From Candidatus Falkowbacteria bacterium (lineage in GTDB: Bacteria > Patescibacteriota > Patescibacteriia > CAIXNZ01): a stretch of DNA of 64,000 nucleotides. Of this stretch, positions 4,127-63,498 are shown piece after piece. Below the pieces are notes generated by a model. It was not told the origin of the DNA, searched no databases, and was given only the letters and a program-made list of their open reading frames with translations. Every line of letters begins with the position of its first letter. Position 1 is the first letter of the stretch. A program made the position numbers and the translations under genes. The stretch lies in assembly GCA_963774955.1 (NCBI GenBank), contig CAVZGV010000003.1, positions 320,771 to 384,770 of the forward strand, written 5' to 3'.

Positions 4127-6841
4127 ATGTCAATTCTAACCAAAATCTTCGGTGACCCGAATAAACGGGTAATCGATAAAATTCAGCCTATCGTTACACA
4201 AATTAATGCTTTGGAAAACGAAATTGAAAAATTGTCTGACGAGAAGCTGAAAAATAAAACTAAAGAATTTAAAGATCTGCTGGCCCAAGGCAAAACTTTG
4301 GACGATATTCTGCCTGAGGCCTTTGCTGTGGTCCGTGAAGCTGCCAAACGGGTTTTGGGTCAGCGTCATTATGATGTTCAATTAATCGGCGGTGTTGTTT
4401 TGCATCGCGGTCAGATTGCGGAAATGAGAACCGGTGAAGGTAAAACCTTGACCTCTACTTTGCCGATTTATTTAAATGCTTTGGAAGGTCAAGGCGTTCA
4501 TGTGGTTACAGTCAATGATTATTTAGCCCGACGCGACTGCGCCTGGATGGGCCAGATTTATAATTTCTTGGGTTTAACCGTCAGTTGTATCCAGAATCAG
4601 CGGGTTACTTATATTTATGATTCTACGGTTAAGGCTGATAAAGCGGATAATGAGCAGGATATTACCAAAATTTTTAAAGTTGATATGGATAATTTACGGC
4701 CGGTTGAAAATCGCAGGCAAGCTTATGATTGCGATATTACTTACGGCACTAATAATGAATTTGGGTTTGATTATCTTCGTGACAATATGGTGACACAGTT
4801 TAAAAGATATGACCCAGCGGGATTTGCATTATGCCATTGTTGATGAAGTTGACAGTATTTTAATTGATGAAGCCAGAACACCGTTGATTATTTCTGCGCC
4901 GGATGCAGAATCCACTGATAAATATTACAAATTTGCCAGCGTGGTCAAAAACTTGAAAGAAAATGAGGATTATAATATTGATGAAAAAATGCACTCTGTC
5001 ACTTTTTCTGAAGAAGGGCAGGAACATCTTGCTCAAATATCTGGGTTTTGATCCCTGGGTGAAAATGGATTATGAAACAACTTTTCATCTGGAAGCGGCG
5101 CTGAAAGCCATGACTTTGTATAAATACGACAAAGAATATGTGGTCAAAGACGGTGAAGTTATTATTGTTGATGAATTTACCGGACGTTTAATGCCGGGCC
5201 GCCGCTATTCTGAAGGTTTGCATCAGGCCCTGGAAGCTAAGGAAGGCTTAACTATTCAAAAAGAAAGTAAGACCCTGGCTACGATTACTTTTCAGAATTT
5301 GTTTCGTATGTATAAAAAACTGGCTGGGATGACTGGTACGGCCTTAACTGAAGCAGAAGAATTTTATAAAATATATAAACTTGAGGTGGTGGAAATCCCG
5401 ACAAATCGTGCTGATGATCCGTCAGGATCTTAATGATCTGATTTATAAAAATGAAAAGGCAAAATTTGAAGCTGTGGTTGAAGAAGTTAAAAGGCGTCAG
5501 GAATTGGGCCAGCCGGTTTTGATCGGTACAATTTCGATTGATAAAAATGAATATTTGGCCAGTCTTATGGAACGAAACGGCATTAAATACAATATGCTTA
5601 ACGCCAAACAGCATGAAAAAGAAGCTGAATATATTGCTCAGGCCGGCAGATCCGGCGCTGTTACTTTGGCGACTAATATGGCCGGTCGCGGTGTAGATAT
5701 TATTTTAGGCGGCAATCCTCCTGATGCGGCTGAGGCTAAAAAAGTTAAGGAATTGGGCGGTCTACATGTTATCGGTACGGAACGCCATGAAGCCCGTCGT
5801 ATTGATAATCAGTTGCGCGGACGCGCCGGACGTCAGGGCGATCCTGGTTCTTCCCAGTTTTTTGTTTCTTTGGAAGATGATCTGATGCGTATTTTTGGTT
5901 CTGATAAGATTAAAAGCGTTATGGAGACTTTCCAGATGCCGGACAATATGCCGATTGAAAACGGATTTATTTCCAAATCACTGGAACAGGCCCAACGCAA
6001 AGTTGAAGGTAATAATTTTGATATCCGCAAACATTTGGTTGAATATGATGACGTGATTAATAAGCACCGGGAAGTGATTTATGCCAAAAGGAAAGAAGTT
6101 TTGGAGATTTCTGAGAATTTAAAAACCGACGTGAAATTGCGGGCGCGTATTTTTGAAATGATAGACGCGGAATTGGAACAGGTGGTGATTTTTCATTGCG
6201 CCGGAGATAATGAAAAAGACTGGAATATCAAGGAAATATATGAAGTTGCGGCGACAATTTTCCCGATTTCCGATAAGGATAGAATCGAAATGCAGGAGAT
6301 GCGTAAGGTTGCCGGCAATGCCACGGAAGATGCTCATGCCAGGACACAGATTATTGATTATTTAATAAATTTGGCCAATCAGTCTTATGATTTGCTAATA
6401 GAAAAAGTAAATAATCCCGATTTGTTTAAGGCTATTGAAAAACAGGTGTTACTCCATTCTATTGATTATTTTTGGATTTTTCATTTGGAGGCCATTAATC
6501 ATCTGCGCACAGGTATTGGTTTGCGCAGTTATGCCCAGGTTGATCCTTTGATGGAATATAAAAGGGAAGCTTTCCGTTTATTCAACGAACTCTTAAATAA
6601 TATTCAGAAGCAGGTGGTTTACAGCATCTTTAAAGTTGGTGTAGTCCAGGAAACCGCGCCTGATCTGATTGAGCAGGGCAAAGAATTCTTTGGCCCCAAA
6701 AAGACCATGGACAAAGGTTCGGTTTTCGGCGCTGAGGCAAATAGGACCCAGCAGGTAGTGCAAAAAAGAGGGGATGTGGGCAGAAATGATCCTTGTCCTT
6801 GCGGTAGCGGAAAAAAGTTTAAGAAGTGTTGTGGGACGTAA
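4127..6841 (+). CDS. secA: Preprotein translocase ATPase SecA, interrupted by three apparent +1 single-base insertions into four ORF pieces.
   Basis: N-terminus [14 protein letters not shown].., DEAD motor motifs ([46 protein letters not shown]) and the C-terminal zinc finger [13 protein letters not shown]. The reading frame jumps near 4800 (extra A in an A-run), near 5045 (extra T in a T-run) and near 5420 (extra G in cgtGctg). Confidence 0.9.
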
Positions 6842-7193: not shown

Positions 7194-7598
7194 ATGAAAA
7201 TAGCCGAATATGTCCAAAATTATACTTCAGGTGACCGCATTAAATTCAAGCATATCCTGTCAGAATTTAAAGAATTGCTTGAGGACATATTTAAACTGAA
7301 TAAAAAGGGTATATATGAAGAATTTGAAGATGTGTTGCATTTTGTCCAATTGTGGCTTTATTGGCGTTTTGGCCTTAACGGCGAAATTTGGCCCATAACC
7401 ATACATTCGGCCGATAAATTCATGGCGCGCAGAACAGTCTGGCGGAAAATATATTTATTTGTCGGTCTGTCTGAGGACATTTCAAATTTTGTTGGTAATT
7501 ATAACAAACCGGAAAAGGTTATTAAACAATTGGTGAAATTCGGCGTCCCTAAAGAAAAAGCTGAAGAAGCTTATAATAAAATTATTTTAAATCAATAA
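7194..7598 (+). CDS. Hypothetical protein.
   Basis: 134-aa ORF co-directional with its neighbours; no recognisable motif. Confidence 0.4.
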   Translation: MKIAEYVQNYTSGDRIKFKHILSEFKELLEDIFKLNKKGIYEEFEDVLHFVQLWLYWRFGLNGEIWPITIHSADKFMARRTVWRKIYLFVGLSEDISNFVGNYNKPEKVIKQLVKFGVPKEKAEEAYNKIILNQ

Positions 7599-7602
7599 AA
7601 TT

Positions 7603-8076
7603 ATGGATATAAAAATTGAAGCAGCGAAAATTGAAAATCTAAAGGATATCCAGGGTTTAAATTCGAAACTTTTTGCCAAAGAATATAAGGATTATGACCA
7701 GTTATTAAAGTTGGATTGGCCATTTGGCTCGGAAGGAACCCAATATTTTACTGATAGAATTTCTAAGCCAGACGGCTGTGTTTTTGTCGCTAAAGTCGAT
7801 AATAAAACAGTTGGCTATTTAGCAGGTGGTTTAACTCAAAGAGAAACGTATCGCAATCTGCCGATTTGTGCTGAATTAGAAAATACTTTTATTCTCGACG
7901 ATTATCGTTCTAAGGGTATTGGCTCACGACTTTATGCTGAGTTTTTAGGGTGGTGTAAAACTAAAAATGTGCATAAAATTGTAGTTGAGGTCAGCGCTCA
8001 GAATGAGTTGGGTTTAAATTTTTACAGGAAAAATAGTTTTAAGGATTTCTCAATGATTCTAGAAGCGGATTTATGA
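7603..8076 (+). CDS. GNAT family N-acetyltransferase.
   Basis: [13 protein letters not shown]...[19 protein letters not shown] resembles GNAT motif A. Confidence 0.7.
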
Positions 8077-8612
8077 TTTATTTTATCACCGGTAATAAAA
8101 ATAAACTCGCTGAAGTCCAGACTGTTTTGCCAGAAGTGGAAAAGTTAGAAATTGATTTGCCGGAAATTCAGGAACTTGATGCCCAAAAAATAATTGAGGC
8201 TAAATTAACTGAAGCCTTAAAGCATAAAGAGGATGAATTTATTGTGGAAGATACTTCTTTGCACTTGGATTGTCTCAATGGTTTGCCCGGACCGCTGATT
8301 AAATGGTTTTTACAGACCATCGGCAATCAGGGCTTGGCGCAACTGGCGGATAAATTAGGTAATGATAAGGCTGAAGCCGTAACCATGATCGGTTATGCTA
8401 AAAGCCAAAACGAGATGCAGTTTTTTGAAGGCAGAGTTAAAGGAAAAATAGTTAACCCCCGCGGTGAAACTAAATTTGGCTGGGATCCGATTTTTATACC
8501 TGACGGCCATGACAAAACTTTTGCGGAAATGGGAATTGAAGAAAAAAATAAAATCAGTATGAGAAGAATGGCTTTGAATAAATTGAAGGAATTTTTAAGA
8601 TCCAAAAATTAA
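8073..8612 (+). CDS. rdgB: Non-canonical purine NTP pyrophosphatase (RdgB/Ham1, ITPase).
   Basis: [33 protein letters not shown] and [10 protein letters not shown] are Ham1-family motifs. Confidence 0.8.
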
Positions 8613-8617
8613 AATTA

Positions 8618-8722
8618 GGCGAAAACGCCCTTTGTCATTCTGAGGAACCGAAGAATCTATGATGTCACAGATCCTTCGCTCCGCTCAGGATGACAGTGAT
8701 CCGACAAAGGGCGTTTTCGCCC
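8618..8722. mobile_element. MITE copy 1 of the GGGCGAAAACGCCC-TTTGTCAT family (~105 bp, terminal inverted repeats).
   Basis: Left end ggcgaaaacgccctttgtcattctgagg, right end gacaaagggcgttttcgcc, with an internal sub-palindrome. About 93% identical to the copy at 51249-51353. It lies 6 bp after the rdgB stop. Confidence 0.8.
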
Positions 8723-8734
8723 TCAAATAATATT

Positions 8735-9364
8735 ATGACCCTACTCCTCACCTCCGCCGGCATGAAGGTTAAGACTGAAATTATGAAAATTCTGCCTAAG
8801 CCGGCCGAGCAAATAAAATTAGCCCATATTATCACTGCTTCTAAATCAGAATCAGATACTTCTTATGTCCACAGAGATTCTGAAGCCATGAAATATGCCG
8901 GATTTCAGGTTGAGGAAATTGATATTGAAGGCCAAACTGAATCTGAACTCAGAGAATTACTGGCTGAAAAAGACATTGTTTATGTCCAAGGCGGTAATAC
9001 TTTTTATTTAATGAAAGCTGTCAGGGAAAGCGGGTTTGATAAGGTTGTTAATGAATTAATCAATCAGGGCAAGATTTATATAGGTGTTAGCGCCGGTACT
9101 ATCATCGCCGGCATTGATATTACTGTGGCCGGTTATGGCGGCGAGATTTGGGATAAGAATGAAGTCGGGTTAACGGATATGACAGGTATGAAGCTGGTTG
9201 ATTTTGCGATTTCACCGCATTTTAAACCTGAAGAATTGGACTTACTTAAAAAAATGCAGTCTGAAGTTGATTATAAGCTTCGAGCCCTAACTGATGACCA
9301 AGCGTTTTTAGTTAAAGATGGCGGAGTTAACTTGGTAGGTAACGGTAAGGAAATAAAAATATGA
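8735..9364 (+). CDS. pepE: Peptidase S51 (dipeptidase E / cyanophycinase-like).
   Basis: QGGNTFYL and GVSAGTIIAG are S51 hallmarks. The ORF's N-terminal extension overlaps the MITE, so the start is taken at MTLLLTSAG. Confidence 0.75.
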   Translation: MTLLLTSAGMKVKTEIMKILPKPAEQIKLAHIITASKSESDTSYVHRDSEAMKYAGFQVEEIDIEGQTESELRELLAEKDIVYVQGGNTFYLMKAVRESGFDKVVNELINQGKIYIGVSAGTIIAGIDITVAGYGGEIWDKNEVGLTDMTGMKLVDFAISPHFKPEELDLLKKMQSEVDYKLRALTDDQAFLVKDGGVNLVGNGKEIKI

Positions 9365-9567
9365 TTCAACCCGGCAAATATCGCCATTACAAAGGCAAAG
9401 AATATGAAGTAATTGGTTTAGCCAAGCACAGCGAGACTTTGGAGGATTTGGTTGTTTACAAGGCGTTATACGGTGAAGGACAAATGTGGGTGAGGCCGGT
9501 AAAGATGTTTGAAGAAAAGGTTATTGTTGATGGGGTAGAGGTGCCGAGGTTTGAATTTATTTCTTGA
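9361..9567 (+). CDS. DUF1653-like small protein.
   Basis: YRHYKGKEYEVIGLAKHSETLEDLVVYKALYG matches the DUF1653 pattern. Confidence 0.55.
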   Translation: MIQPGKYRHYKGKEYEVIGLAKHSETLEDLVVYKALYGEGQMWVRPVKMFEEKVIVDGVEVPRFEFIS

Positions 9568-10215
9568 CGTGGCTTGACGAAGCCTTGCTTCGTAAGTCAT
9601 TAAAATGTTATAAAAATGAAAACTAAAATAAGAAATATCCATCGTCCAATCCACATATTTGAACCTGGTGCCCAGTATTTTATTACGCTTTCCATATATC
9701 AAAAGAAAAAATCATTAAATACGGACGAAAAGAAACATGTAGTTCGGGAAAGTTTAATGAACGCAATCGAAAAATACGGTATTGTTTTAAATGCTTGGGT
9801 TATTCTGGAAAATCATTTTCATGTGTTAATTTCCGCTATAAGTCCCGAAGCTATTCCTCGATTTATAAAATTTATCAGTTCCAGAAGCTCAGTGATGCTA
9901 AACAAAATGAACAATACGCCCGGGGTAAAGAATTTTTATCAATATTGGGATAGGATAATAAGGGATGAGAATGATTTTTATACCAAAATTAATTATATCC
10001 ACTTTAACCCGGTTCATCATAGGTACTGCCAAGAGCCTGCTGAATATGCTTTTTCATCGTATAAAGAATACCTTGATGAATTTGGGGTGGAATGGCTGAA
10101 TGACTGCATAAATAATCATCCTTTGAATACCCATCGGTATTGAATGACACAACAAGGCTGTGTAAAGCCACGTTACGATGAAAATTAGCATCAGCAAGGC
10201 TGTGTTAAACTACGG
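9567..10215. mobile_element. RAYT unit: Y1 transposase gene bracketed by inverted REP-like hairpin repeats.
   Basis: Upstream acgtggcttgacgaagccttgcttcgtaagtcat; the reverse complement of downstream is acgtggctttacacagccttgttgtgtcat. A second downstream copy agcaaggctgtgtt lies at 10193-10215. Confidence 0.5.
9616..10143 (+). CDS. IS200-like Y1 transposase (REP-associated tyrosine transposase, RAYT-like).
   Basis: HxH motif in ENHFHVLIS, a C-terminal Tyr region (YIHFNPVHHRY) and ~175 aa size. Flanked by imperfect inverted repeats at 9567-9600 and 10145-10174. Confidence 0.65.
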   Translation: MKTKIRNIHRPIHIFEPGAQYFITLSIYQKKKSLNTDEKKHVVRESLMNAIEKYGIVLNAWVILENHFHVLISAISPEAIPRFIKFISSRSSVMLNKMNNTPGVKNFYQYWDRIIRDENDFYTKINYIHFNPVHHRYCQEPAEYAFSSYKEYLDEFGVEWLNDCINNHPLNTHRY

Positions 10216-10239
10216 AAAAGGGGTTTTATCGCGTTTTAT

Positions 10240-11202
10240 ATGGCGAATAATATAAGAGAAAAAAACAATCACGGCTGGCACTACATTGCCGATGTTGACT
10301 TGGGTGATTTTTTGACCTTGGCTGATGTTAGAGATACCTATTTGCAGAATTATTTGGGAAAAGGTTATACGGATGTTAAGTTGGAGCTGGTGAAAGGGAA
10401 AATCTATAAAGTTTATCTTTATCGTCCCGTTGAGCTCAAAGGTTTGAATAAAAATGATCCTCTTTTTATGGCCGTGATTTTACCGACAAAGATCAGTTTA
10501 TTGAAGTCTCAAATTAAAAATTTTCCTGACAAGAAAAAAGAAATTCAAAATGAAATTATTTTTTGGAAGATTGCTTTAAGAAATTATCGGCAGAAAAGAA
10601 AGCTATCCGAATGGGCAGCAGGTTTACCAGATAAATTGCGTTTTAAAATGCGGAACTGTAAATATCTGCCGAGTTTTAATGAAACCAGTAGAATCCCTTA
10701 TAAACAACGCGAATCATTTCAGGAAGAATTTTTTGATTATGAAATTTGGAATAGGGAATACATTAATGCTTTGGCCAAACAAATCGGCAATCATAAGATA
10801 GTCATGGAGGTTGGAGCAGGCTCTGGGCGGCTAAGTTACTTTTTAAGAAAAAAATTACCCAATAACCAAATTATCGCAATTGATATTAGTTTGAAAAACA
10901 AAGTAGCTGGTATTCCACTTATAAAAATGTCCATGAAACAGGCTTTACAGAAGTTTAAACCGGATATTTTAATTTGTTCCTGGCCTGACGCTTTTTTCTG
11001 GCAGGAAATTAAGCATAATACCAGCGCCAAGAAAATAATTTTAATCGGCGACAGTGAGGATACACCATTGGCTAGGGAAATAAAAGGCGAGTGGCAATGG
11101 CTGCCAATTAAGGGTTTTAAAGTAAGGGAATTTTTTGCAGCTAAAAAGGTTCAGACCAGCCGAGACAGCCTGGGTACCACAATTATTTATAAAAATAATT
11201 AA
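10240..11202 (+). CDS. Class I SAM-dependent methyltransferase-like protein with an N-terminal extension.
   Basis: VMEVGAGSGRLSYFL (motif I GxGxG) followed by IAIDIS (motif II). Confidence 0.55.
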   Translation: MANNIREKNNHGWHYIADVDLGDFLTLADVRDTYLQNYLGKGYTDVKLELVKGKIYKVYLYRPVELKGLNKNDPLFMAVILPTKISLLKSQIKNFPDKKKEIQNEIIFWKIALRNYRQKRKLSEWAAGLPDKLRFKMRNCKYLPSFNETSRIPYKQRESFQEEFFDYEIWNREYINALAKQIGNHKIVMEVGAGSGRLSYFLRKKLPNNQIIAIDISLKNKVAGIPLIKMSMKQALQKFKPDILICSWPDAFFWQEIKHNTSAKKIILIGDSEDTPLAREIKGEWQWLPIKGFKVREFFAAKKVQTSRDSLGTTIIYKNN

Positions 11203-11206
11203 ATCT

Positions 11207-11695
11207 ATGAGAAATAAAACTCAGGAATCAAATTTGGAAACTGCTGATTTTGCCGCCGGTTGTTTTTGGGGCGTGCAGTCAACTTTTGATAAATTAGCCG
11301 GAGTCAAAGAAACAACAGTCGGTTATGAAGGCGGACAAGTGGCTAATCCGACCTATGAACAGGTCAGTGATCACCAAACTGGTCATGCTGAGACAATCCG
11401 CATTAAGTATGATCCGAATATCATTTCATATACAACCTTGCTGGATACCTTTTGGAAAATACATAATCCGACAACCAAAGACCGTCAGGGACTCAATGTC
11501 GGTTCTAATTACCGTTCGGCTATTTTTTATCACAATCAAAAACAAAAAGAACTGGCGGAAAGAGCCAGGGAAGATTTATTAAAAAGAGGTGTTTATAAAA
11601 AAATTGTTACTGAGATTGCACCGGCTTCAGAGTTTTGGCCGGCTGAGGAATATCATCAGAAATATTATTTAAAAAATAAGGGTTTAGTTTGTTAA
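11207..11695 (+). CDS. msrA: Peptide-methionine (S)-S-oxide reductase MsrA.
   Basis: Active-site GCFWG and YHQKYY near the C-terminus. The ORF extends upstream to 11135; the Met at 11207 follows the previous stop. Confidence 0.85.
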   Translation: MRNKTQESNLETADFAAGCFWGVQSTFDKLAGVKETTVGYEGGQVANPTYEQVSDHQTGHAETIRIKYDPNIISYTTLLDTFWKIHNPTTKDRQGLNVGSNYRSAIFYHNQKQKELAERAREDLLKRGVYKKIVTEIAPASEFWPAEEYHQKYYLKNKGLVC

Positions 11696-12138
11696 TTATG
11701 AACAGAATTATAAATATGAAACGCGACGTCTCAATTTTAATTCCTTATAAAAAAGAAAATGGTGAGGTTTTGGTTTTCCTGGAACGCCGTTCCAAAACAG
11801 CCGAGCGGATTCCTGATTGGTTTGGTTTTTGGGGCGGGGGAATTGAAGCAGGAGAATCCTCGGAACAGGCTTTATTGCGTGAAATAAAAGAAGAATTGGA
11901 TTTTAAACCGGTCGGTTATCAACATTTTAAAGATTTTGAATTCGGGGTTTTAAAAAGCATTAAACATCTTTATATCTTAGAGGTTGACAAAAGTTTTGAA
12001 TCTAAGATAAAGTACAATGAAGCTCAATACGGACAGTGGTTTAATCAGCAACAAATTGAAACTGAAAAATTACTGATTGAAGACGACAAGATCGTTTTGA
12101 GAGAGTTCTTTAACTCGTTAAAAGGAGAAAATATATGA
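11689..12138 (+). CDS. NUDIX hydrolase.
   Basis: Nudix box GGGIEAGESSEQALLREIKEELDF (GX5EX7REUXEEXGU). Confidence 0.8.
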   Translation: MLIMNRIINMKRDVSILIPYKKENGEVLVFLERRSKTAERIPDWFGFWGGGIEAGESSEQALLREIKEELDFKPVGYQHFKDFEFGVLKSIKHLYILEVDKSFESKIKYNEAQYGQWFNQQQIETEKLLIEDDKIVLREFFNSLKGENI

Positions 12139-12713
12139 AAACAATCTTGCCCATTATTTTGGGTTCTTCATCCCAGTGGCGGCAGGGGATTATGCGTCAG
12201 TTGGGTGTTCCTTTTACTGTCATGACTGCTGATATTGATGAAAAGGCAATCCGTCATGATATTCCCGAAGAAATGGTGGTTTTGATTGCTAAAGCTAAGG
12301 CTGCAGCGATTTTACCCAAAATTTCTGAACCTTCAATTCTGATCACGGCTGATCAGGTGGTACGCTGTAACGACGAAATCAGGGAAAAGCCGGTTGACGA
12401 GAAACAGGCCAGGCAATTTCTGGAAAGTTATAGTCGCTATCCGGCCGAAACCATCAGCAGTATCGTGGTCATCAATACCGGGTCCGGTAAGATGGCTGAA
12501 GGTGTTGATCTGGCCAAGATATTTTACAAACCGATACCGATTGAAGTCGTTGATGCTTTAATCGCCAAAGGTGATGTTTTCAAGGCAGCCGGTGGATTTA
12601 TTCATGAAGATCCTTTGATCAGTCCCTATGTTGATCACCTTGAAGGGACAGATGACAGCATTGACGGTTTACCGATTGCGCTGTTAGAAAAATTAATTGC
12701 CGAAGTTAGTTAA
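12135..12713 (+). CDS. maf: Maf-like nucleoside triphosphate pyrophosphatase.
   Basis: ILGSSSQWRQGIMRQLGVPFTVMTADIDE is the Maf N-terminal signature; ~190 aa. Confidence 0.8.
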   Translation: MKTILPIILGSSSQWRQGIMRQLGVPFTVMTADIDEKAIRHDIPEEMVVLIAKAKAAAILPKISEPSILITADQVVRCNDEIREKPVDEKQARQFLESYSRYPAETISSIVVINTGSGKMAEGVDLAKIFYKPIPIEVVDALIAKGDVFKAAGGFIHEDPLISPYVDHLEGTDDSIDGLPIALLEKLIAEVS

Positions 12714-12723
12714 AAAAATAAGT

Positions 12724-12752
12724 CCTCCCGCTACGTGGGAGGGCTTTATATT
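12724..12752. terminator. Rho-independent terminator hairpin, probably bidirectional.
   Basis: cctccc-gctacgt-gggagg stem followed by a T-rich run. It sits between maf (+) and the convergent 92-aa gene (-). Confidence 0.6.
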
Positions 12753-12760
12753 TGTGCCCG

Positions 12761-13039
12761 TTAAATAATGATTTCATAACTGATTTTTTGGCCTGGTTCT
12801 TGAGGCAGAGCTGTCATCAAAATACCTTGGATTTCTTCAGTGGCAATTTTTTTATCCTCCCAGGTATAGGTGATTCGAACAGCTTGATCTGTATGTGTTT
12901 GAACCAGGATCCACGGCTCAATACGGCACGATGGTTGTGATTGATCAATGATCGTTAAGTTGTGAATCATTGCAAAGTCATATAGATGTTTCATCTTTTG
13001 GACACAACTTTTTCCACGGGTATGTACACAGTCTTCCAT
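12761..13039 (-). CDS. Hypothetical 92-aa protein.
   Basis: Good SD (aggaggg, 7 nt upstream) and a sigma70-like promoter on the minus strand at 13040-13085; isolated between two terminators. Confidence 0.5.
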   Translation of the reverse strand: MEDCVHTRGKSCVQKMKHLYDFAMIHNLTIIDQSQPSCRIEPWILVQTHTDQAVRITYTWEDKKIATEEIQGILMTALPQEPGQKISYEIII

Positions 13040-13096
13040 TATTTTTCCCTCCTGAAGATGAGTATAAATAAATTTATGAATTTTTGCAAATAAATA

Positions 13097-13120
13097 AGCC
13101 CCACCGCGTAGCGGGGGGCT
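13097..13120. terminator. GC-rich hairpin terminator.
   Basis: gccccaccgc-gta-gcggggggc followed by T-rich tracts on both strands; ends the minus-strand operon 14323..13133. Confidence 0.55.
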
Positions 13121-13132
13121 TTAAGTTTGTAA

Positions 13133-13585
13133 TCAGGGTTTTTTTCTGAATATCGTGAGCTTGGCTCTGACCTCATCGCAGCCTTGTTCGCGATCGTAGT
13201 CAGGGAAGATCCCGATCTGATCCGGGGGAACACCGGGGAACTGGCGTTTGATCATTTCCAGCAGATCCTCCATGTCAATTTCGAAAGGGACATAGATCTC
13301 TTTGACTTCGTTGACTTTCTCGGAGGAGAGTTTGGACTCGGCTTCCTGTCGGCGTTGGATCCAGTCTTCCTGGGGAATGTTGTGGTTGTCCTCGGTGAAG
13401 GAATCGTTTTCCGCGTCGAAACGGAAGTAGCCGCAGATGCAGGTGTATTCGGTCGGACCGTCTTTCAGGTCAAACTCGATGTCAAATTCCTTGCCGCACA
13501 TGGGGCATTTGCCCGCAATGCGCTTGGTGTGGCTCTGGATTTCCACGTATCCGACTTCACCGATTTGGTAGCTATTGTAGCCCAT
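13133..13585 (-). CDS. Zinc-ribbon protein, hypothetical (GC-rich island).
   Basis: CPMCG..(x16)..CICG Cys4 motif with an acidic C-terminal half. ~52% GC and GC3-rich codons, unlike the host. Confidence 0.6.
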   Translation of the reverse strand: MGYNSYQIGEVGYVEIQSHTKRIAGKCPMCGKEFDIEFDLKDGPTEYTCICGYFRFDAENDSFTEDNHNIPQEDWIQRRQEAESKLSSEKVNEVKEIYVPFEIDMEDLLEMIKRQFPGVPPDQIGIFPDYDREQGCDEVRAKLTIFRKKP

Positions 13586-13597
13586 GATTTTCTCCTT

Positions 13598-14323
13598 TTA
13601 GATCTGGATCTGGAATTTCTTGGTTTTGCTTTGCCAGGGCATCTTGATCATGGGGATACCGGGAATTTCGCGGTTGGAGTAAAAGCAACCGTCAACCCCA
13701 TGGAAAATCGAAGCCTTGGCGCCGTCATGTTCGGGCACGTGCACCAGCATGTAGTGCTCATCTGGAAACTCTTTGGGATCGCTGGTAATAAAGACGATGT
13801 CCAGATTGAATGTACTGGCCAAGGTCCGCAGTTCTTCAGCATTGGATGGCTTGACCTGGTCATCTTTGCCCAGATAGATCCTTACTGCCACATTGGGCCA
13901 GGATCTGATCATCTGGCAGGGAAGTCCGGGGATCATGGCAGTTGACCAGAATTCTCCGTACTCGTTCAAGATGATGCGGGCAGTGTCGGAATTCGGCAGT
14001 TTGACGATAATACTGGGAATGCCTCCCCAGACAGCAGCCGGGTCTTCGGAGCAGATTGTCAATCCCGCCAATTCAGCCAGCGCCACCAGCTCCTCCAAGA
14101 GAGGAATGATCCTTTTCTTTTTGGGTTGGTTGTTGCTAACGCAGTATTCGCGTTTTTTTTTGGCTTCATTCAGGAAACAGGAAATGGCCCAGCCAATGGA
14201 GCTCCACTGATCCCAGTGCCTGTAAGCACCGTCCCAGTCACGAAATCCCTCAGGCAGGTCGGCACCATTTAGCCATTCGGCTAGGGTTAAATCGTTTCGC
14301 TTGGTATGGTCAACTTTTGGCAT
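13598..14323 (-). CDS. Hypothetical 241-aa protein (GC-rich island).
   Basis: Long minus-strand ORF 12 bp upstream of the zinc-ribbon gene, in an operon arrangement. SD aaaggag and promoter at 14374-14402. Confidence 0.6.
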   Translation of the reverse strand: MPKVDHTKRNDLTLAEWLNGADLPEGFRDWDGAYRHWDQWSSIGWAISCFLNEAKKKREYCVSNNQPKKKRIIPLLEELVALAELAGLTICSEDPAAVWGGIPSIIVKLPNSDTARIILNEYGEFWSTAMIPGLPCQMIRSWPNVAVRIYLGKDDQVKPSNAEELRTLASTFNLDIVFITSDPKEFPDEHYMLVHVPEHDGAKASIFHGVDGCFYSNREIPGIPMIKMPWQSKTKKFQIQI

Positions 14324-14373
14324 GTCTTTCTCCTTTTCAAAATAAAAATAAATTCAATTTTAAGGAACTTTTA

Positions 14374-14402
14374 ATTTTAGCACATTTTAGTGGTTTTGTC
14401 AA
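14374..14402 (-). promoter_or_regulatory. Sigma70-type promoter (TTGACA-17-TAAAAT) on the minus strand.
   Basis: Reverse complement reads gtgTTGACAaaaccactaaaatgtgcTAAAATtaaaag, upstream of the 241-aa gene. Confidence 0.6.
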
Positions 14403-14409
14403 CACGTTC

Positions 14410-14522
14410 GCCAAAAAGAAAAGGGAGCTCCGTTATGGGAGCTCCCTTGGTGTTAAGGCAAATAGATAGGGCTGTAGATCGGCGTGTAGTTTTGATTGGC
14501 CACGCTGAGCGTCAGTCCCTTG
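14410..14522. repeat. Direct repeat copy A (~113 bp): duplicated gene 3' end plus terminator hairpin.
   Basis: ~90% identical to 15145-15258. Contains hairpin gggagctcc-gttat-gggagctccc and a 31-aa stub ORF (14453-14548, minus) ending ..GLTLSVANQNYTPIYSPIYLP, the same C-terminus as the lipoprotein 15188-16015. The stub start overlaps the upstream gene's stop (TAATG). Confidence 0.85.
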
Positions 14523-14547
14523 ATATTAGGCTCAGACTTGGAGACCA

Positions 14548-15021
14548 TTAATCAAGTGGCTGGGTCATTAGCTTTATTTGCATAACCTGCCTGAGCTTTT
14601 TCATTAAACGCTCAAGTGCTTCTTTTTTGAAAGGATCAATGTCTGAATCGTCCAGCTCAACATTATCTACTTCGTCTTTCTCGTCTATCAACCCGATTTC
14701 AACTGACAGAAAAGTGATTGCTAAGATTCTGGTTAAAGTTTTAAAATTTATATCCAGAATTTCCATAATTCGAATGAAATTGGCTGTTTCGTCCAGAAAA
14801 TCATCAGCCTGAAGATCAACTTCTTCTTTTAATAATTTATCTGCGAAATTTTGGGTCATACCCAGAATTTCAATCATTTTTTCTCTTGATGTTTGGACTT
14901 CTCCCATTAGTAAGAAAAAAATATATGGCAGATCGTAGCCGCAATCGTCAATCCAGTGTTTAGCTTCTTTTCTGGTTAATCCTCGCATCAATTCAATATT
15001 ATTCTCTAAGGCTATGGACAT
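14548..15021 (-). CDS. Hypothetical acidic 157-aa protein (AT-rich, inside the GC-rich island).
   Basis: Minus-strand ORF with host-like AT-rich composition, bracketed by the two 114-bp direct repeats. Confidence 0.5.
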   Translation of the reverse strand: MSIALENNIELMRGLTRKEAKHWIDDCGYDLPYIFFLLMGEVQTSREKMIEILGMTQNFADKLLKEEVDLQADDFLDETANFIRIMEILDINFKTLTRILAITFLSVEIGLIDEKDEVDNVELDDSDIDPFKKEALERLMKKLRQVMQIKLMTQPLD

Positions 15022-15144
15022 GTCAATTCCTCCATTAGGTTATGTTGTACCAATGAACTAAGCCCTTTATGAAATAACTTGGCAGAATTTTTTTAAAAAA
15101 CTATCTTTATAATATTAGATGTTTAATTATTTGTCAATATGTTA

Positions 15145-15258
15145 GCCAAAAAGAAAAGGGAGCTCCGTGTGGGGAGCTCCCTTGGTTTTAAGGCAAATAG
15201 ATTGGGCTGTAGATCGGCGTGTAGTTTTGATTGGTCACGCTAAGAGTTAGTCCCTTGG
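15145..15258. repeat. Direct repeat copy B: the authentic 3' end of the lipoprotein gene plus its terminator.
   Basis: gccaaaaagaaaagggagctccgtgtggggagctcccttgg..agtcccttgg aligns with copy A. Confidence 0.85.
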
Positions 15259-16015
15259 TATCACTGGTTTTCCAGTGGTTCAGGTTGAGCGGATCAAACG
15301 CTGTTACCCGGATGGCCAGTGGTTGGTTGTCCGGAAAATCGTAGTCCAGGAAGGCGATGTCCTCGTAGTTTTGCAGGGCGATCCAGAAAGTACAGAGCTG
15401 GAAGCTGGCTTCATAGCCGCCGCCATTCCTGAGTTTCAGAGCGTAAACCTCAACTCGGATCGGATCCGAAGACAGGTTTTCGCAGTAAAACGAGTTGTTG
15501 CTCTGGTCCAGCGGATTGTTTTCCGCATAACGGCCGTCAAACTGACAAGCCGCGCCATTGATGATGCCCACCGGAATCTGATAAGTGTTTCTGGTGCTGG
15601 TGTTGATGATTTCAAACTCACCCTCGACGACCATGCCCTGTCCTTGGAAATCCGGTTCGGTGCCGTGGACATTGGCATAGTAGACTGAAACAATGCCCCG
15701 CCAGATTTTGAATTCCAGCATATCGCCTTCTTCCAGGTCGCGCGAATAGACACTGTTGGTGTTATAAGGCAGGGTGATCAGCTCACGGACAAGGTAGGTG
15801 TTGGTGGTTTTGTTGAACAGATCCACCTTGACTACCACGTCATTGTTGTTGGTGAACGAAATCAGACCGTTTTCCAGGGTGAAGTCAAAGTCGACTCCGG
15901 CCAGACTGGCGTAGGCGTAGTGGTAAGTCGGGGGAGTCCCGGGCGCTTCCTCTTTATAGGGTGCGCAGTTCAGACAGAAGAACCCGAGGCAGATGCTGAT
16001 AATAAGTTGCTTCAT
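15188..16015 (-). CDS. Secreted protein/lipoprotein, hypothetical (GC-rich island).
   Basis: The ORF runs 15188..16087; the real start is the Met at 16015 (MKQLIISICLGFFCLNC signal/lipobox-like) with a GGAGG SD, 10 bp after the upstream gene. It shares an ANVHG motif with its upstream neighbour. Confidence 0.6.
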   Translation of the reverse strand: MKQLIISICLGFFCLNCAPYKEEAPGTPPTYHYAYASLAGVDFDFTLENGLISFTNNNDVVVKVDLFNKTTNTYLVRELITLPYNTNSVYSRDLEEGDMLEFKIWRGIVSVYYANVHGTEPDFQGQGMVVEGEFEIINTSTRNTYQIPVGIINGAACQFDGRYAENNPLDQSNNSFYCENLSSDPIRVEVYALKLRNGGGYEASFQLCTFWIALQNYEDIAFLDYDFPDNQPLAIRVTAFDPLNLNHWKTSDTKGLTLSVTNQNYTPIYSPIYLP

Positions 16016-16025
16016 TTTCGTCTCC

Positions 16026-16502
16026 TCAGGGATCCAAGTCGTAGACTGTTCCGTTTTTGGGACAATCCACTGGCTGGTAATTGGCATCCCAGTAAGTCAC
16101 GTAGACCTCGACGTGGGAATTGATTTCCAGCCAGGTGTTGTAGGGACAGCCAGTATGCATGTAGCCGTCTTCACCTTTGATATTGACGCAGTCATTGGCA
16201 TTCCAGCCAACTCCGATGTCAACCACCTGAACATTGCCTTCGAACATGATGATCCTGGCGCCGTGGACATTGGCGTTTCTGACATAAATTTTGTTCCAGT
16301 ACCACTCGCCGTCGCCCTGGACATAGGTGGCGCCGAATTCCATGTCCACACCGCAAAAGTCGTCGATGTAGACCAGGTCGGGTTCGCCGTAGACGTTCAT
16401 GCCGGTGTCGGCTTTCTGGCCGTTGATGTTGACGCTGTCACAGCCCAGGCCAATGATTCCGCAGGCCAGAATAATACTGGCCATAACGATCATCTTTTTC
16501 AT
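16026..16502 (-). CDS. Lipoprotein, hypothetical (GC-rich island).
   Basis: MKKMIVMASIILAC.. with a lipobox-like ILAC/LGC; SD aagggagg; ~52% GC. Confidence 0.6.
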   Translation of the reverse strand: MKKMIVMASIILACGIIGLGCDSVNINGQKADTGMNVYGEPDLVYIDDFCGVDMEFGATYVQGDGEWYWNKIYVRNANVHGARIIMFEGNVQVVDIGVGWNANDCVNIKGEDGYMHTGCPYNTWLEINSHVEVYVTYWDANYQPVDCPKNGTVYDLDP

Positions 16503-16595
16503 AAGATTATCCTCCCTTTCATTGGAAACAGTTTGGGTGTATAAGCCTAAAATTGCCTAATTTAAAGGACAAAATCTAATATCTAGTATATTCGA

Positions 16596-16623
16596 ATATA
16601 TCATATTTTATCAAATTTGTCAA
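16596..16623 (-). promoter_or_regulatory. Sigma70-type promoter (TTGACA-16-TATATT) for the minus-strand lipoprotein operon.
   Basis: Reverse complement reads cTTGACAaatttgataaaatatgaTATATTcg. Confidence 0.5.
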
Positions 16624-16640
16624 GGTTTAATATTATGCCC

Positions 16641-16669
16641 TTGATAAAAAAAGCTTTTTGTCATACAAT
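16641..16669 (+). promoter_or_regulatory. Sigma70-type promoter (TTGATA-17-TACAAT) for secD; divergent from the lipoprotein promoter.
   Basis: ccTTGATAaaaaaagctttttgtcaTACAATagc, ~65 bp upstream of the secD start. Confidence 0.5.
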
Positions 16670-16733
16670 AGCTATAAGAATTAGCCTGTTTACAGGCGAT
16701 TTTATTTTTATTTAAATTTAACCAAATATTATT

Positions 16734-46428: not shown

Positions 46429-47583
46429 ATGCCCAAAGAAAAAGGACAACAAGATGCAGAAGCGCAGGACTTGGCTATGGCCAGGCGGGTTTTGGGTCAG
46501 GCTAAGGAATTGGATTTGACTGAACAGGAGAAAACAGAGCTAATGGAATTGATTAGTCAGGCCAAGGAAAAAGAAAATGCTAATAATTTGGCCGCAGCCA
46601 TAAAATTATACGGGCAGGCTAGGGACTTTATAAAAAATATTAAGGAGAAAAGTAATTACGATAAATTTGAGTGCTTGCAGTCCTGGGAAGCTCATAAGGG
46701 CGTTGCCTGGTCAGTTTTGTTAAGTTCTGACCAAAAGAAATTAATTTCCTGCGGCAGTGATAAGGCTGTCAGAGTTTGGGATAGAAAAACCGGTCAATGC
46801 GATAAAAGTTTAGAAATGCCGGAAGGTCATTGGGGTATTGTCAGGAGATTAAGACCAAGCAAAGACGGTGAACATTTTTATTCTGTCAGTAATGATGGTT
46901 CCTGTAAAATGTGGGATCAAAAAAACTGGCAGTGTGAAAAAACTTTTGAGCCAAACGAAGAAAATCAGCCAGTGTGCACGGACGTTATTGAATTGGATGA
47001 TAATATTTTAATTTCAACCCATCTTTCTCTTAAAATAAAATTATGGTCTAAAAAAAGCGAAGCTAATTCGGTTAGAGGATTGTTTGGAGTTAACGAGGTC
47101 TATGGAGGTATTAAAATAGGAGAAGATTTACTGGCATTATCAACAGATAGGGGGGTGGTAATTTATGACTTAGAAGCTCGTGGAGTTCCAAATATTTTAA
47201 ATAATGTTGCCTCGCAGGAAACAGCTATCTTAGAAAGTGCTGATAAAAAATATTTATTTGTTGGCGCTCCTATAATTAAACCCAAGGGTGAGGGCAATTT
47301 TGATTTGCAGATTTGGGATAAAGACGGCTGGGATCTAATTGCTTCTTTGCCCGGTCACGAAGATATTATCAGAAGTATTGTTCAAACCCGAGATGGAAAA
47401 CATTTGATTACCTGCAGCGATGACAAAACAGTTAAAGTCTGGGATATTGAACAAGAAAAATGCATAAAAACTTTTGACATGGAAGATCATGAACCCAGAT
47501 GTGTTATTGAAGCTGAAAATGGAGACATTATAACTACCGGCAGGGACGGAAAAATAAAGATTTGGGGAATAAAAGAAAAATAA
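46429..47583 (+). CDS. Family member 1: conserved N-terminal module + WD40 beta-propeller.
   Basis: N-terminus ..AQDLAMARRVLGQAKELDLTEQEKTELMELISQAKE..; WD40 repeats (..FECLQSWEAHKGVAWSV.., ..CGSDKAVRVWD.., ..DDKTVKVWD..). Confidence 0.8.
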   Translation: MPKEKGQQDAEAQDLAMARRVLGQAKELDLTEQEKTELMELISQAKEKENANNLAAAIKLYGQARDFIKNIKEKSNYDKFECLQSWEAHKGVAWSVLLSSDQKKLISCGSDKAVRVWDRKTGQCDKSLEMPEGHWGIVRRLRPSKDGEHFYSVSNDGSCKMWDQKNWQCEKTFEPNEENQPVCTDVIELDDNILISTHLSLKIKLWSKKSEANSVRGLFGVNEVYGGIKIGEDLLALSTDRGVVIYDLEARGVPNILNNVASQETAILESADKKYLFVGAPIIKPKGEGNFDLQIWDKDGWDLIASLPGHEDIIRSIVQTRDGKHLITCSDDKTVKVWDIEQEKCIKTFDMEDHEPRCVIEAENGDIITTGRDGKIKIWGIKEK

Positions 47584-47584
47584 T

Positions 47585-48820
47585 ATGAAAAAAAATATTG
47601 AACAACCCAAAGATGAGGTGCAGGAACTGGCCATGGCCAGGCAGGCTTTGGATAAGGTTAAGGAACTGGATTTGACTCCTGAGGAAAAAGAAAAAGTGAT
47701 GGCTATGATTGATAAGGCCAAGGAGCATGAACAGAACAAGGAGCTGTCAAAAGCCCTGAATGTATATAACGAACTTCTGCGGTTATTGAAAAACAAAGAA
47801 AATATCGGCAATTTAGAAAAGTTAGTTAAATATGGTGACTTTGAGATTTTGTATTCGCAGGCGCAGGTATTATTTGCCTTGGAGGAAGAGATTGCCAAAG
47901 TTAAGAATAGTGTTGATCCGCTGGTCCATTATTCAGAATTGGTAATCAGGCAAATACTTATCGATAAAGGGCTTAAAGTTGAAGCCGGAAATGTAATAAA
48001 ATTAAACGTTAGTCATCTTGACATAGCAACTTTGCCGGACTTAAAATCCTTAGAAAAACTGGAAGATTTAAACTGTTCGTATAATAAGTTATCTGTATTG
48101 CCAGAGTTAAAGACGTTATCAAAAATTAAAATAATAAATTGTTCTTGTAATCAGTTATCTGAATTACCGGATTTAAGCGCCTTAAAAAATCTTGATACTT
48201 TGTTTTGTGACTCAAATCATCTCACTGTAATGCAGGATCTAAGCGCTTTAATTAATCTTAAACGATTAAATTTAAGTATTAATTATTTTAGTGGTTTACC
48301 TGACTTGAGCCACTTGACTAAACTGGAATTTTTGGACTGTTCAAGGAATGAATTAATTTATTTGCCCGATCTTAAAGCCTTAAAAAAACTGGAACATTTA
48401 GAATGTAATAACTGCGAATTGGTAGGCTTGCCGGATTTTGAAGATTTAAAAAAAATAAGAATATTAAGCTGCAGTCACAATCTTTTGTCTTTCATCCCTG
48501 GCCTTAGTAAATTGGAAGATATTGAAGATTTGGATTGTTCAAATAATCTGATATTAAATCTTGACGACGTTAGTTCCTTGGAAACGCTTGTTAAGCTACA
48601 GATTGAAAATAATAAAATAACTAGTTTGCCTGATTTATCCAGGCTGGATCAACTGGAAGTTTTAAATTGTTCTCGAAATAAATTATCCATCTTGCCCAGA
48701 GATTTAGTCGGGTTAGAAGATCTTAAAGAAGTTTGGCTGGGAGGCTGTATAGTGAATAGGACTGAAACTGAGGAAGAATTTGAGGAAATTTTACCGGCAG
48801 GATGTGAAATATATTGGTAG
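47585..48820 (+). CDS. Family member 2: conserved N-terminal module + leucine-rich repeat domain.
   Basis: ..VQELAMARQALDKVKELDLTPEEKEKVMAMIDKAKE..; ~13 LRRs of type LxxLxxLxxLxCSxNxLSxLPDL. Confidence 0.8.
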   Translation: MKKNIEQPKDEVQELAMARQALDKVKELDLTPEEKEKVMAMIDKAKEHEQNKELSKALNVYNELLRLLKNKENIGNLEKLVKYGDFEILYSQAQVLFALEEEIAKVKNSVDPLVHYSELVIRQILIDKGLKVEAGNVIKLNVSHLDIATLPDLKSLEKLEDLNCSYNKLSVLPELKTLSKIKIINCSCNQLSELPDLSALKNLDTLFCDSNHLTVMQDLSALINLKRLNLSINYFSGLPDLSHLTKLEFLDCSRNELIYLPDLKALKKLEHLECNNCELVGLPDFEDLKKIRILSCSHNLLSFIPGLSKLEDIEDLDCSNNLILNLDDVSSLETLVKLQIENNKITSLPDLSRLDQLEVLNCSRNKLSILPRDLVGLEDLKEVWLGGCIVNRTETEEEFEEILPAGCEIYW

Positions 48821-48890
48821 TTTGGAAAAAAGTACGAGCCGCGGAGCGGCATTCCGCTGCGTGGAAAAGTCCGAATTTATAATAATTTTT

Positions 48891-50261
48891 ATGCCCAAAG
48901 AAAAAATACAAGCAGATAAAATTGAAGCTCAGGAACTGGCCATGGCCAGGCGGGTTTTGGGTACTGTTAAGGAATTGCCGATGTCTGAGGCTGAAAAGGC
49001 CAAGCTTATGGAATTGATTGATCAGGCAAAGCAATTGGAAACAGAAAATAAGTTGCATCAGGCCATTGTGGTTTATAATCAGGCAGCCGGTCTGATGCGG
49101 AAAATTAAAGCCAGAAATGAAAATCAGGTTAGAACCAATCCCAAGGAATCGTGGGACTGGCAGGTCGGAGAAAAATTATTGTTGGATGACGAAGGATTTA
49201 TTGGCCCAAAAGGCTTTGCTCAATTTGATACCGCGGTATTTACTACGGACGGAGAAACTGTTTTGTGTGAAGTAAGCGACCAATTCATCAATTGGCTGGC
49301 AAAGAATGGTAAAACAGCTGCTGAAACAGTCTTTAAAAGTAAACAACTTGTAGCCAGTAATGATGGGCAGCATTTTGCCGCATTAGTTTTGAATACTGCA
49401 GACGGCGATGAAGACTTTTATGAGGTCGTCACAGATAAAGGCAAAGGGATATATAAATCTTCTGAAGCTTGCAAAAAATTGATGTTCAGTCCTGACGGAG
49501 AAAAATTAGCAGTCTTTGTGAAGGATGAGGTTTCCAGCCCCAGTGACCAGTATTATAAAATTGTTGAAAACGGCCAATTGCTTTTTCCCTGGATTTATGG
49601 CGATCCTTCAGACCCCAAAGATTATCGCTTGAAAGATATAATCTATAGTCCTGATAGTCAGAAACGAGCAGCTATCATTCATGGGCTTGGCAGTGACTTC
49701 AGTGATGCAAATGAGGTTTCAGAGAGTATTGTAGTAGATGGCGATAAAAAGTGGCAACCACAAGCAGCGACTTTGAAATGGCCGGTTTATAGCCCTGATG
49801 GTGAAAAACTGGCAGTAGTAGACCGTGAAGGTCAGATTATGGTTAATGAAAAATATATTGAAATTCTTTCCGGGAAAAAAGCCCTGAGTCCGCCGGTTTT
49901 TAGCCCCAATGGAGAAAAGATCGCTTATGTTGTTAGCCTGGACCCGAGAAAAACAAGTTTTACTTTAGCTGAGGATGATAAAATCAAATGGGAACATTCC
50001 ATGTTTAAAGAAATACGCGATTTTGTTTATAGTGATGACGGACAAAGCATTGCAGCTGTGGTAATAAATCCAAGCGAGGAAGCAAACGAAATTAAAATTG
50101 CGGTCAACGGTATTAATATTGATGACGATGAATATATTAATGTTAAACATTTAACCTTCAGTCCTGATGGACAAAAGATTATGTATGTGGGACAAAAAGA
50201 CGACGGTAAATATTTTCGGATTGTCAAAGATGTCAGTGATTATGCAAAAATTCAGACATAA
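48891..50261 (+). CDS. Family member 3: conserved N-terminal module + PD40/TolB-like beta-propeller.
   Basis: ..AQELAMARRVLGTVKELPMSEAEKAKLMELIDQAKQ..; six (F/Y)SPDG(E/Q)K(L/I)A blades. The ORF extends upstream to 48780; start taken at MPKEKIQ. Confidence 0.75.
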   Translation: MPKEKIQADKIEAQELAMARRVLGTVKELPMSEAEKAKLMELIDQAKQLETENKLHQAIVVYNQAAGLMRKIKARNENQVRTNPKESWDWQVGEKLLLDDEGFIGPKGFAQFDTAVFTTDGETVLCEVSDQFINWLAKNGKTAAETVFKSKQLVASNDGQHFAALVLNTADGDEDFYEVVTDKGKGIYKSSEACKKLMFSPDGEKLAVFVKDEVSSPSDQYYKIVENGQLLFPWIYGDPSDPKDYRLKDIIYSPDSQKRAAIIHGLGSDFSDANEVSESIVVDGDKKWQPQAATLKWPVYSPDGEKLAVVDREGQIMVNEKYIEILSGKKALSPPVFSPNGEKIAYVVSLDPRKTSFTLAEDDKIKWEHSMFKEIRDFVYSDDGQSIAAVVINPSEEANEIKIAVNGINIDDDEYINVKHLTFSPDGQKIMYVGQKDDGKYFRIVKDVSDYAKIQT

Positions 50262-50266
50262 ATATA

Positions 50267-62066: not shown

Positions 62067-63439
<1,373 letters not shown>

Positions 63440-63498
63440 CAAATGACAAAATCCAAATGACAAATAAATTTCAAATTACAAATTTTAAATAACAAATC

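Follow-up and report, generated by a model that had tools for sequence, protein, structure and literature searches.

The DNA analysed here (hereafter the window) is a stretch of 64,000 nucleotides from a Candidatus Falkowbacteria bacterium (GenBank contig CAVZGV010000003.1, positions 320,771 to 384,770), in which four minus-strand genes lying divergent from secD, here named A, B, D, and E, form an island whose third codon positions are far richer in G and C than those of the surrounding genes. An earlier reading made from the sequence alone (the sequence-only reading) had taken the island to be cargo acquired by horizontal gene transfer (HGT) from a higher-GC organism, and this was not borne out: related bacteria share both the locus and its excess of GC at third codon positions (GC3), the island has diverged together with its flanks, its silent sites are close to saturation, and no mobility genes were found. 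The island is very probably native to this clade of Parcubacteria, being neither a recent import nor an artefact. More fully, we favour a native conserved locus of putative surface lipoproteins and small proteins, in which the GC of silent sites would be kept by a gene-specific, expression-linked force, a reading that we hold to be evenly poised between right and wrong.

Composition of the island genes

The window as a whole has a GC content of 0.384, against which that of the four genes is 0.519 for A (13133–13585; GC3 0.689), 0.510 for B (13598–14323; GC3 0.624), 0.511 for D (15188–16015; GC3 0.670), and 0.518 for E (16026–16502; GC3 0.704). These minus-strand genes had been described as GC-rich, and so they are, at 51–52% GC with GC3 of 0.62–0.70. 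When set against 31 long plus-strand genes serving as the host reference (mean GC3 0.370, standard deviation 0.028), A, B, D, and E have z-scores of 9.2–12.1 for GC3, compared with 0.8–1.9 for first (GC1) and −0.2 to 2.1 for second (GC2) codon positions. Moreover, the fraction C/(C+T) at two-fold degenerate codons ending in a pyrimidine (Y2 sites) is 0.62–0.77 in the four genes versus 0.07–0.37 in all 65 other open reading frames (ORFs). Here, we noticed that the composition changes several times in 3.5 kb, each time where a gene starts or stops. The spacer at 16503–16733 (231 nt) has a GC of 0.255 and that at 15022–15187 one of 0.33, and with spacers of 25–33% GC the promoters and terminators are indeed AT-rich and host-like, as the sequence-only reading had it. 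Two further genes on the island strand, gene C (GC3 0.35) and orf92 (GC3 0.34), are also host-like in composition. The atypical composition of A, B, D, and E is real and large, and belongs to coding sequence only.

Conservation of the locus in related genomes

The relatives compared were a Lac Pavin "Candidatus Parcubacteria" metagenome-assembled genome (L001), L002, L003, and L054, the last of which spans the full secD-to-maf interval, along with an outgroup (L005, L006, and L007). L054 and L001 proved to represent one strain, and L054 was therefore dropped as a close outgroup. A word search with D found three relatives, and in all of them secF-secD faces E-D, followed by genes for zinc-ribbon proteins and for a domain of about 80 residues that we call LAEL. 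Orthologues of E occupy the matching position in L001/L054 (87% identity), L002 (59–62%), and L003 (50%). In these same genomes the island GC3 is 0.58–0.75 (0.47 for the gene Znr138) versus 0.29–0.45 in the flanking housekeeping genes. In the outgroup, which has 32% GC and a secD that is 65% identical, E-like, D, and LAEL genes lie at the same locus, with D and E host-like in composition and the small genes alone moderately elevated in GC3. Rather than the patchy distribution of a recent island, then, the secD-adjacent locus is present in L001/L054, L002, L003, and L005–7, and in all relatives the orientation of the island relative to secD is kept.

The island co-diverges with its flanks in the same order, though its proteins evolve much faster. 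Amino acid identity to the window falls from L001 through L002 and L003 to L006 as 0.855, 0.806, 0.749, and 0.651 for secD, as 0.852, 0.580, 0.414, and 0.380 for D, and as 0.873, 0.618, 0.497, and 0.246 for E, and the test for gene-tree incongruence gave none, the identity order being alike for D, E, and the flanks.

An exhaustive search with a D profile among 1.84e9 proteins returned 22 family representatives at E ≤ 1e-3, and all members that could be placed lie in contigs of the Candidate Phyla Radiation (CPR) type. With every detectable homologue thus in CPR or Parcubacteria-type contigs, taxonomic profiling gave the very outcome that the sequence-only reading had itself set down as counting against HGT. 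The island had no blastn match among phages or plasmids, D had no tblastn match among phages, and the D profile found no relative in viral contigs or Joint Genome Institute (JGI) metagenomes. In addition, there is no tRNA gene in the 64-kb window, the six island ORFs matched no mobility family (integrase or transposase) in library scans, and the island has no border repeats, its sole repeat being internal, around gene C.

That the island might be an assembly chimera, joining a GC-richer organism to a Parcubacteria contig, is effectively refuted. The contig, in which secA and atpD are frameshifted, does look like a long-read assembly prone to errors. However, five assemblies made independently from different samples all contain these junctions, and the flips of composition at start and stop codons recur within 3.5 kb. 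B also occurs as an exact copy on a contig assembled independently from short reads, where the gene order is B-A-orf92-Maf. As the junctions recur in independent assemblies, the island is not a chimera, and on this point, that it is integrated, the sequence-only reading was right.

Silent-site turnover and amelioration

We compared silent sites between lineages using 35–180 sites per pair. Against L003, the identity of island Y2 sites is 0.54–0.65 (random expectation 0.52–0.61) and that of four-fold sites 0.35–0.47 (random expectation 0.32–0.33). Silent sites are hence close to saturation between lineages, and the composition is unchanged. In a two-state amelioration model (S for G or C, W for A or T) calibrated on flanking genes, the compositional memory is 0.45–0.56 per lineage, from which a very high GC3 in the clade ancestor is required: neutral decay needs an ancestral GC3 of 0.77–1.15, with a lower bound of 0.94 from the L002–L003 pair. 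According to amelioration theory, GC3 converges on the host value first, while GC1 and GC2 lag behind. The pattern found is the reverse: GC1 and GC2 are host-like, and it is GC3 that departs widely from the host. A donor that GC-rich would also leave high GC1 and GC2, and neither is seen. Moreover, when the window is compared with L054, codons are identical at 0.707 of conserved residues in the island versus 0.603 in the flanks (p=1.7e-6), so that the island has changed more slowly than its flanks at synonymous sites, though its proteins are the more diverged. A partial duplicate of the 3' end of D (D', described below) was considered as a probe of neutral decay and set aside for having too few informative sites.

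These results bear on an ancient transfer, or replacement, from a GC-richer CPR relative in the clade ancestor, followed by an unfinished and unusually slow amelioration, which we consider unlikely. It has several points in its favour. D-family genes are native in GC-rich CPR-type contigs, such as L008 (59% GC, where D, with a GC3 of 0.82, has the composition of its surroundings) and L010 (about 50% GC). Substitutions polarised by parsimony on the window and L001 branches of the island number 40 S>W against 18 W>S, and GC3 is lower in the window and L001 (0.60–0.70) than in L002 and L003 (0.69–0.75). The skew could reflect a slow net GC loss in the window/L001 sub-clade, or else could be a counting bias from common to rare, as the flanks are similarly skewed in the reverse direction. 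The host-like D and E of L005/6/7 look as if fully ameliorated, and a foreign-looking block of 65% GC upstream of secD in L011, a distant Parcubacterium, implies that this site can accept foreign DNA. However, the ancestral GC3 would have had to be about 0.9–1.1 while GC1 and GC2 are host-like, when GC3 should be first to erode, and the transfer would have to leave the composition the same in L003, at near-saturation of silent sites. Furthermore, the nearest relative outside the clade (P0006, from L005/6/7) occupies this very locus and is AT-rich, while the GC-rich relatives are distant (E ~1e-21), and phylogenetic incongruence is lacking. In any case, an ancient foreign origin would not explain the present composition.

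Nature of the codon bias

Compared with plus-strand genes, the shift in the island resembles a change from T or A to C at third positions (NNU to NNC) with AAA and GAA retained. This apparent preference for C is partly a strand effect. The C-fraction at Y2 sites is 0.68 in the island, 0.20 in opposite-strand genes, and 0.31 in same-strand genes. With gene C, orf92, and the IMPDH gene of L054 as same-strand controls, the odds ratios are 4.7 at Y2 sites and 2.5 at the purine-ending two-fold sites (R2), and at four-fold sites 3.4 for C versus W and 3.3 for G versus W. The bias is a general enrichment of GC over AT at silent sites. We accordingly withdrew a C-specific shift as a tRNA-matching signature, given that G and C are raised equally against same-strand genes. 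Strand, or head-on orientation, was likewise rejected as the cause, for the three controls share the orientation and not the composition. The GC3 of island genes is lower at the 5' end (0.51 in codons 2–11).

Classical translational selection, by which extreme expression would have matched codons to the tRNA pool (C-ending codons and CTG), is very unlikely. The NNU-to-NNC shift against plus-strand genes with AAA and GAA kept, the Y2 odds ratio, the strong promoters and Shine-Dalgarno sites, and the 5' dip in GC3 all agree with it. Yet G- and C-ending codons rise equally against the same-strand controls, and the genes of the cytoplasmic A and B show as strong a bias as those of the lipoprotein-like D and E. 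Nor is the bias found where such selection might be looked for: C/(C+T) is 0.07–0.24 in ATP synthase subunits (0.11 in alpha) and 0.22 in sigma-70, with secD, SecF, and SecA likewise without bias, and ribosomal protein S11 of L012, another Parcubacterium, shows no excess (0.28).

The effect is specific to genes and not to the region, with gene C, orf92, the L054 IMPDH gene, and the spacers all unaffected. As the sole exception, the maf gene of L002 (13278–13856), which adjoins the island on the opposite strand, has a GC3 of 0.58, compared with 0.41–0.42 for maf in the window and L054 at a similar amino acid identity (0.80); in this one lineage, the GC enrichment has spilled over locally. Next to the island, the 3' end of the IMPDH gene differs between L054 (5630–5867) and L001 (13886–14123) by 26 mismatches within 240 bp, as against 1 mismatch over the preceding 5.6 kb, and this cluster is a strain-level recombination tract adjoining the island.

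A recombination hotspot, in which diversifying selection on surface proteins would promote exchange and GC-biased gene conversion (gBGC) would lift GC, could account for the symmetric four-fold enrichment of G and C, for the variable gene content, in which there are paralogues in tandem and a partial duplicate of 132 nt, for the recombination tract beside the island and the partly enriched maf of L002, and for the quick evolution of the island proteins. Even so, we judge it rather improbable. The borders are sharp and fall at genes, with gene C, the L054 IMPDH gene, orf92, and the 231-nt spacer (25% GC) left unaffected, GC1 and GC2 are scarcely shifted, and synonymous change is slower than in the flanks. 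Besides, the shift in GC3 from 0.36 to 0.70 is, to our knowledge, far above the effects reported for bacterial gBGC.

A probable gene-specific force on silent sites

Since the GC excess outlasts a near-complete turnover of silent sites, a gene-specific force must maintain it. In the explanation that we favour, a native locus, divergent from secDF and head-on to an otherwise uniform gene orientation, would encode the fast-evolving surface lipoproteins E and D together with variable LAEL and zinc-ribbon cytoplasmic proteins, and a gene-specific force would keep the synonymous third positions of these genes GC-rich. This force is most likely selection on genic GC or codon content tied to strong expression. 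The gene-level borders, the synonymous-only effect, the symmetry of G and C, and the slower synonymous rate are all in keeping with selection on GC, as are reporter experiments in E. coli and Caulobacter, in which GC-rich synonymous variants gave an expression-dependent fitness benefit that was independent of codon usage (PMC4478552). The tie to expression is suggested by the near-consensus promoters, the strong Shine-Dalgarno sites, and the known expression-dependent cost of AT-rich transcripts. As to a role, we infer a cell-envelope or partner-contact module from the fold of D, the localisation predicted for the proteins, their rapid evolution, and the adjacency to secDF, these four being all that it draws on. 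Put together, a surface or partner-contact gene set may have been held at its own codon regime, with GC3 about twice that of the genome, by gene-specific selection through a complete turnover of silent sites, which we offer as a tentative view.

Several findings weigh against maintenance by expression-linked selection. Genes that are presumably well expressed (ATP synthase alpha, sigma-70, and secD, and S11 in L012) have no GC3 excess, and orf92, which belongs to the domain family of B, is not GC-rich. The host-like D and E of the outgroup imply that the force is not universal to the family, the GC3 of maf in L002 hints at a regional component, and the 40-to-18 skew towards W, with the net loss of GC that it could indicate, runs the same way. 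Moreover, the saturation tests rest on few sites, as given above.

Comparison with known systems

Compositional islands, selection on codons, and adhesin loci of elevated GC in minimal genomes are all known kinds of thing. What is unusual here is a GC3-rich state that persists past synonymous saturation, with gene-by-gene borders on one strand, in an AT-rich genome of about 0.57 Mb. Genomic islands acquired by HGT (in the Lawrence–Ochman amelioration framework) share with this locus a discrete atypical block under host-type signals and the presence of partly surface-exposed genes that lack functional annotation and vary in content between relatives. In contrast, the locus described here sits at the same site in all sampled relatives and co-diverges with its flanks, comes with no detected integrase, tRNA, or border repeats, and has an anomaly of GC3 only that persists past synonymous saturation.

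GC is elevated at the P1/RepMP adhesin loci of M. pneumoniae and the MgPa/MgPar loci of M. genitalium. Recombination is documented at both (PMC2169797, PMC3004944). The resemblance to these mollicute loci lies in a GC-richer, fast-evolving operon for surface proteins in a minimal AT-rich genome with a partial duplicate nearby. However, there is one 132-nt partial copy here and no dispersed repeat archive within 64 kb, and no relationship in sequence or fold was seen.

Selection that acts on individual expressed genes to make their synonymous sites GC-rich was reportedly described by Raghavan and colleagues in 2012. The GC selection studied by Kelkar et al. (2015; PMC4478552) is like the present case in acting on synonymous coding sites only, with G and C rising equally and intergenic DNA unaffected. 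Unlike it, the published cases are genome-wide tendencies demonstrated by reporter genes in E. coli and Caulobacter, whereas the effect described here would be limited to a few genes of an ultra-small, AT-rich genome, with a presumed link to expression.

Atypical GC is routinely taken as a sign of HGT, and its failure here on comparative evidence is a warning for the calling of islands in CPR and other reduced genomes. Here, a single genome has two regimes of composition on one strand, with only a few bases between them. Should the GC of silent sites be actively maintained, the locus would offer a handle on how selection, biased gene conversion, and mutation set bacterial GC, and, if the favoured explanation is true, it would be a natural experiment for selection on genic GC, independent of tRNA matching, under strong AT pressure. 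Moreover, the analysis defines a conserved secDF-adjacent module of Parcubacteria, with two lipoprotein-like proteins, a new domain of about 80 residues, and zinc-ribbon proteins, that is a candidate for a part in cell-surface or host-contact biology.

Organisation of the locus

All features described here are on the minus strand unless stated otherwise. Reading in the direction of transcription, promoter P1 (16595–16623; TTGACA-17-TATATT with a TG extension) is divergent from secD and drives E-D. The sequence-only reading had placed a promoter here with a 16-nt spacer; the promoter exists, though its spacer, over 16623–16595, is 17. Gene E encodes 158 residues and gene D 275, and their operon closes with an intrinsic terminator at 15156–15183 (an 11-bp stem with 7 GC pairs, followed by a T tract). 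Next come promoter P2 (15109–15137; TTGACA-17-TATTAT), upstream of gene C, and gene C itself (14548–15021), which encodes an acidic orphan of 157 residues and divides the island as a lineage-specific insertion. Gene C is bracketed by a direct repeat of 132 nt with 90% identity and a spacing of 735. Copy 2 (15130–15261) holds the last 24 codons of D together with its terminator and a −35 box (TTGACA), and copy 1 (14395–14526) holds D', a duplicate of that terminator (14421–14448), and a −35 box, D' being a 24-codon remnant of the D 3' end (14456–14527). No counterpart of gene C was found in L001/L054, L002, or L003, and its protein cluster has one member; as an orphan absent from every related locus, gene C is a later insertion.

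Promoter P3 (14374–14402; TTGACA-17-TAAAAT with a TG extension), which had been read correctly from the sequence, drives gene B (241 residues) and gene A (150 residues), and the B-A operon closes with a terminator at 13099–13116. The hairpin terminators that had been proposed were likewise confirmed, at 15183, 14448, and 13116. Further along lie a promoter-like site upstream of orf92 (13061–13089; TTGCAA-17-TATACT), which fits the consensus at 9 of 12 positions, orf92 itself (12761–13039), which encodes a protein with a single LAEL domain, and, as the left border, a bidirectional hairpin terminator (12720–12746) between maf (plus strand) and orf92. By function orf92 is part of the island, but by composition it is not. 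In the 64-kb window, ten sites fit the promoter consensus at 11 or more of 12 positions, and three of the ten are the island operon promoters. Strong Shine-Dalgarno sites are present on all island transcription units.

Antisense ORFs within the island, such as 13184–13945 on the plus strand, were rejected as genes: C3-rich codons are expected to give rise to such shadow ORFs, one of which spans the A/B boundary. A structured RNA gene was also rejected, as Rfam scans of the window and of L011 gave no match.

Encoded proteins

Gene D encodes a lipoprotein-like product. Its AlphaFold model is all-beta with a predicted local distance difference test score (pLDDT) of 90.8, and among the best Foldseek matches in the PDB are RbmA and the tandem FN3 domains of contactin or cytokine receptors (probabilities 0.9–1.0). 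On this model, D is predicted with high confidence to consist of a signal peptide followed by two consecutive FN3/Ig-like beta-sandwiches, whereas no membership of a sequence family was found in Pfam. RbmA of Vibrio cholerae, a surface and matrix protein of the tandem FnIII type whose chains are the top PDB matches, resembles D, in which the two beta-sandwiches are predicted behind a lipoprotein-type signal peptide. However, D shares 9–10% sequence identity with it, the global TM-scores are about 0.2 (the domain orientation differs), and a Pfam match is wanting, so that the modelled similarity holds at the level of fold class only.

E is predicted to be secreted and lipoprotein-like, contains cysteine, and weakly resembles the first domain of D. 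As hhalign gave a probability of just 30%, a clear paralogy between E and this domain was rejected. The two proteins do share the ANVHG motif that had been pointed out earlier, in D as YYANVHGTEPDF and in E as RNANVHGARII. By inspection, the lipobox region reads MKKMIVMASIILAC in E and MKQLIISICLGFFCLNC in D, and canonical lipoboxes are found in homologues, namely ..LLSGC in the E of L002 and ..LLISC in P0006.

The cytoplasmic protein B, by domain alignment, has an N-terminal part of 70 residues and two copies of the LAEL domain. The model of this domain (pLDDT 85.8) has one helix and six strands, and searching the PDB and BFVD for similar folds gave nothing significant. A LAEL profile gave 7 matches among 5.8e9 proteins; orf92 (P0026) matches it at E=3e-23, and also matches phrog_22773 weakly (E=1e-5). 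Protein A carries the zinc ribbon foreseen by the sequence-only reading as a four-cysteine one (CPMC...CIC, of the form CxxC...CxC) and a C-terminal domain, and its N-terminal 89 residues are 72% identical to the A-like protein of L001/L054. Lineages differ in how many LAEL and zinc-ribbon genes they carry. Apart from the match of orf92 to phrog_22773, the six island proteins gave nothing significant against Pfam, NCBIfam, PHROG, or PADLOC, in keeping with the earlier remark that no product is recognisable, and PDB sequence searches with E, A, and C returned no match. The LAEL domain and the protein families of the locus are newly described here.

Neighbouring genes and the secD-upstream site

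Outside 12.76–16.5 kb, every long ORF of the window is on the plus strand, and the cumulative GC skew climbs monotonically throughout the 64 kb. From these two features, the island is the sole block that is head-on to replication. Upstream of the island, at 7194–12713, is a set of nucleotide 'house-cleaning' genes (HAM1-like, HIT, NUDIX, Maf, and a MazG-like protein of 134 residues), whose order is kept in L002 and of which the maf-NUDIX part is kept in L054.

In L011 (38.6% GC), the 65% GC block mentioned above lies at 9150–9850 on the minus strand, directly upstream of and divergent from secD. It contains two small Cys-rich ORFs that are paralogues of each other (..PKGxxCD...ADLCDEC..), with GC1 of 0.64–0.74 and GC3 of 0.77–0.92, and looks like an import from a high-GC donor, which suggests a hotspot for unusual DNA upstream of secD.

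Elsewhere in the window, the essential genes secA (4127–6790) and atpD (62067–63500) are each broken by several frameshifts, secA passing through frames 2, 3, 1, and 2 when compared with the SecA of L011. These are most likely uncorrected indel errors of long reads, the assembly being a single contig of 565,549 bp, and not pseudogenes. Lastly, four paralogues of 320–490 residues, at 46429–51241 and 55000–56088, have a common N-terminal motif, ..QELAMARQALG...

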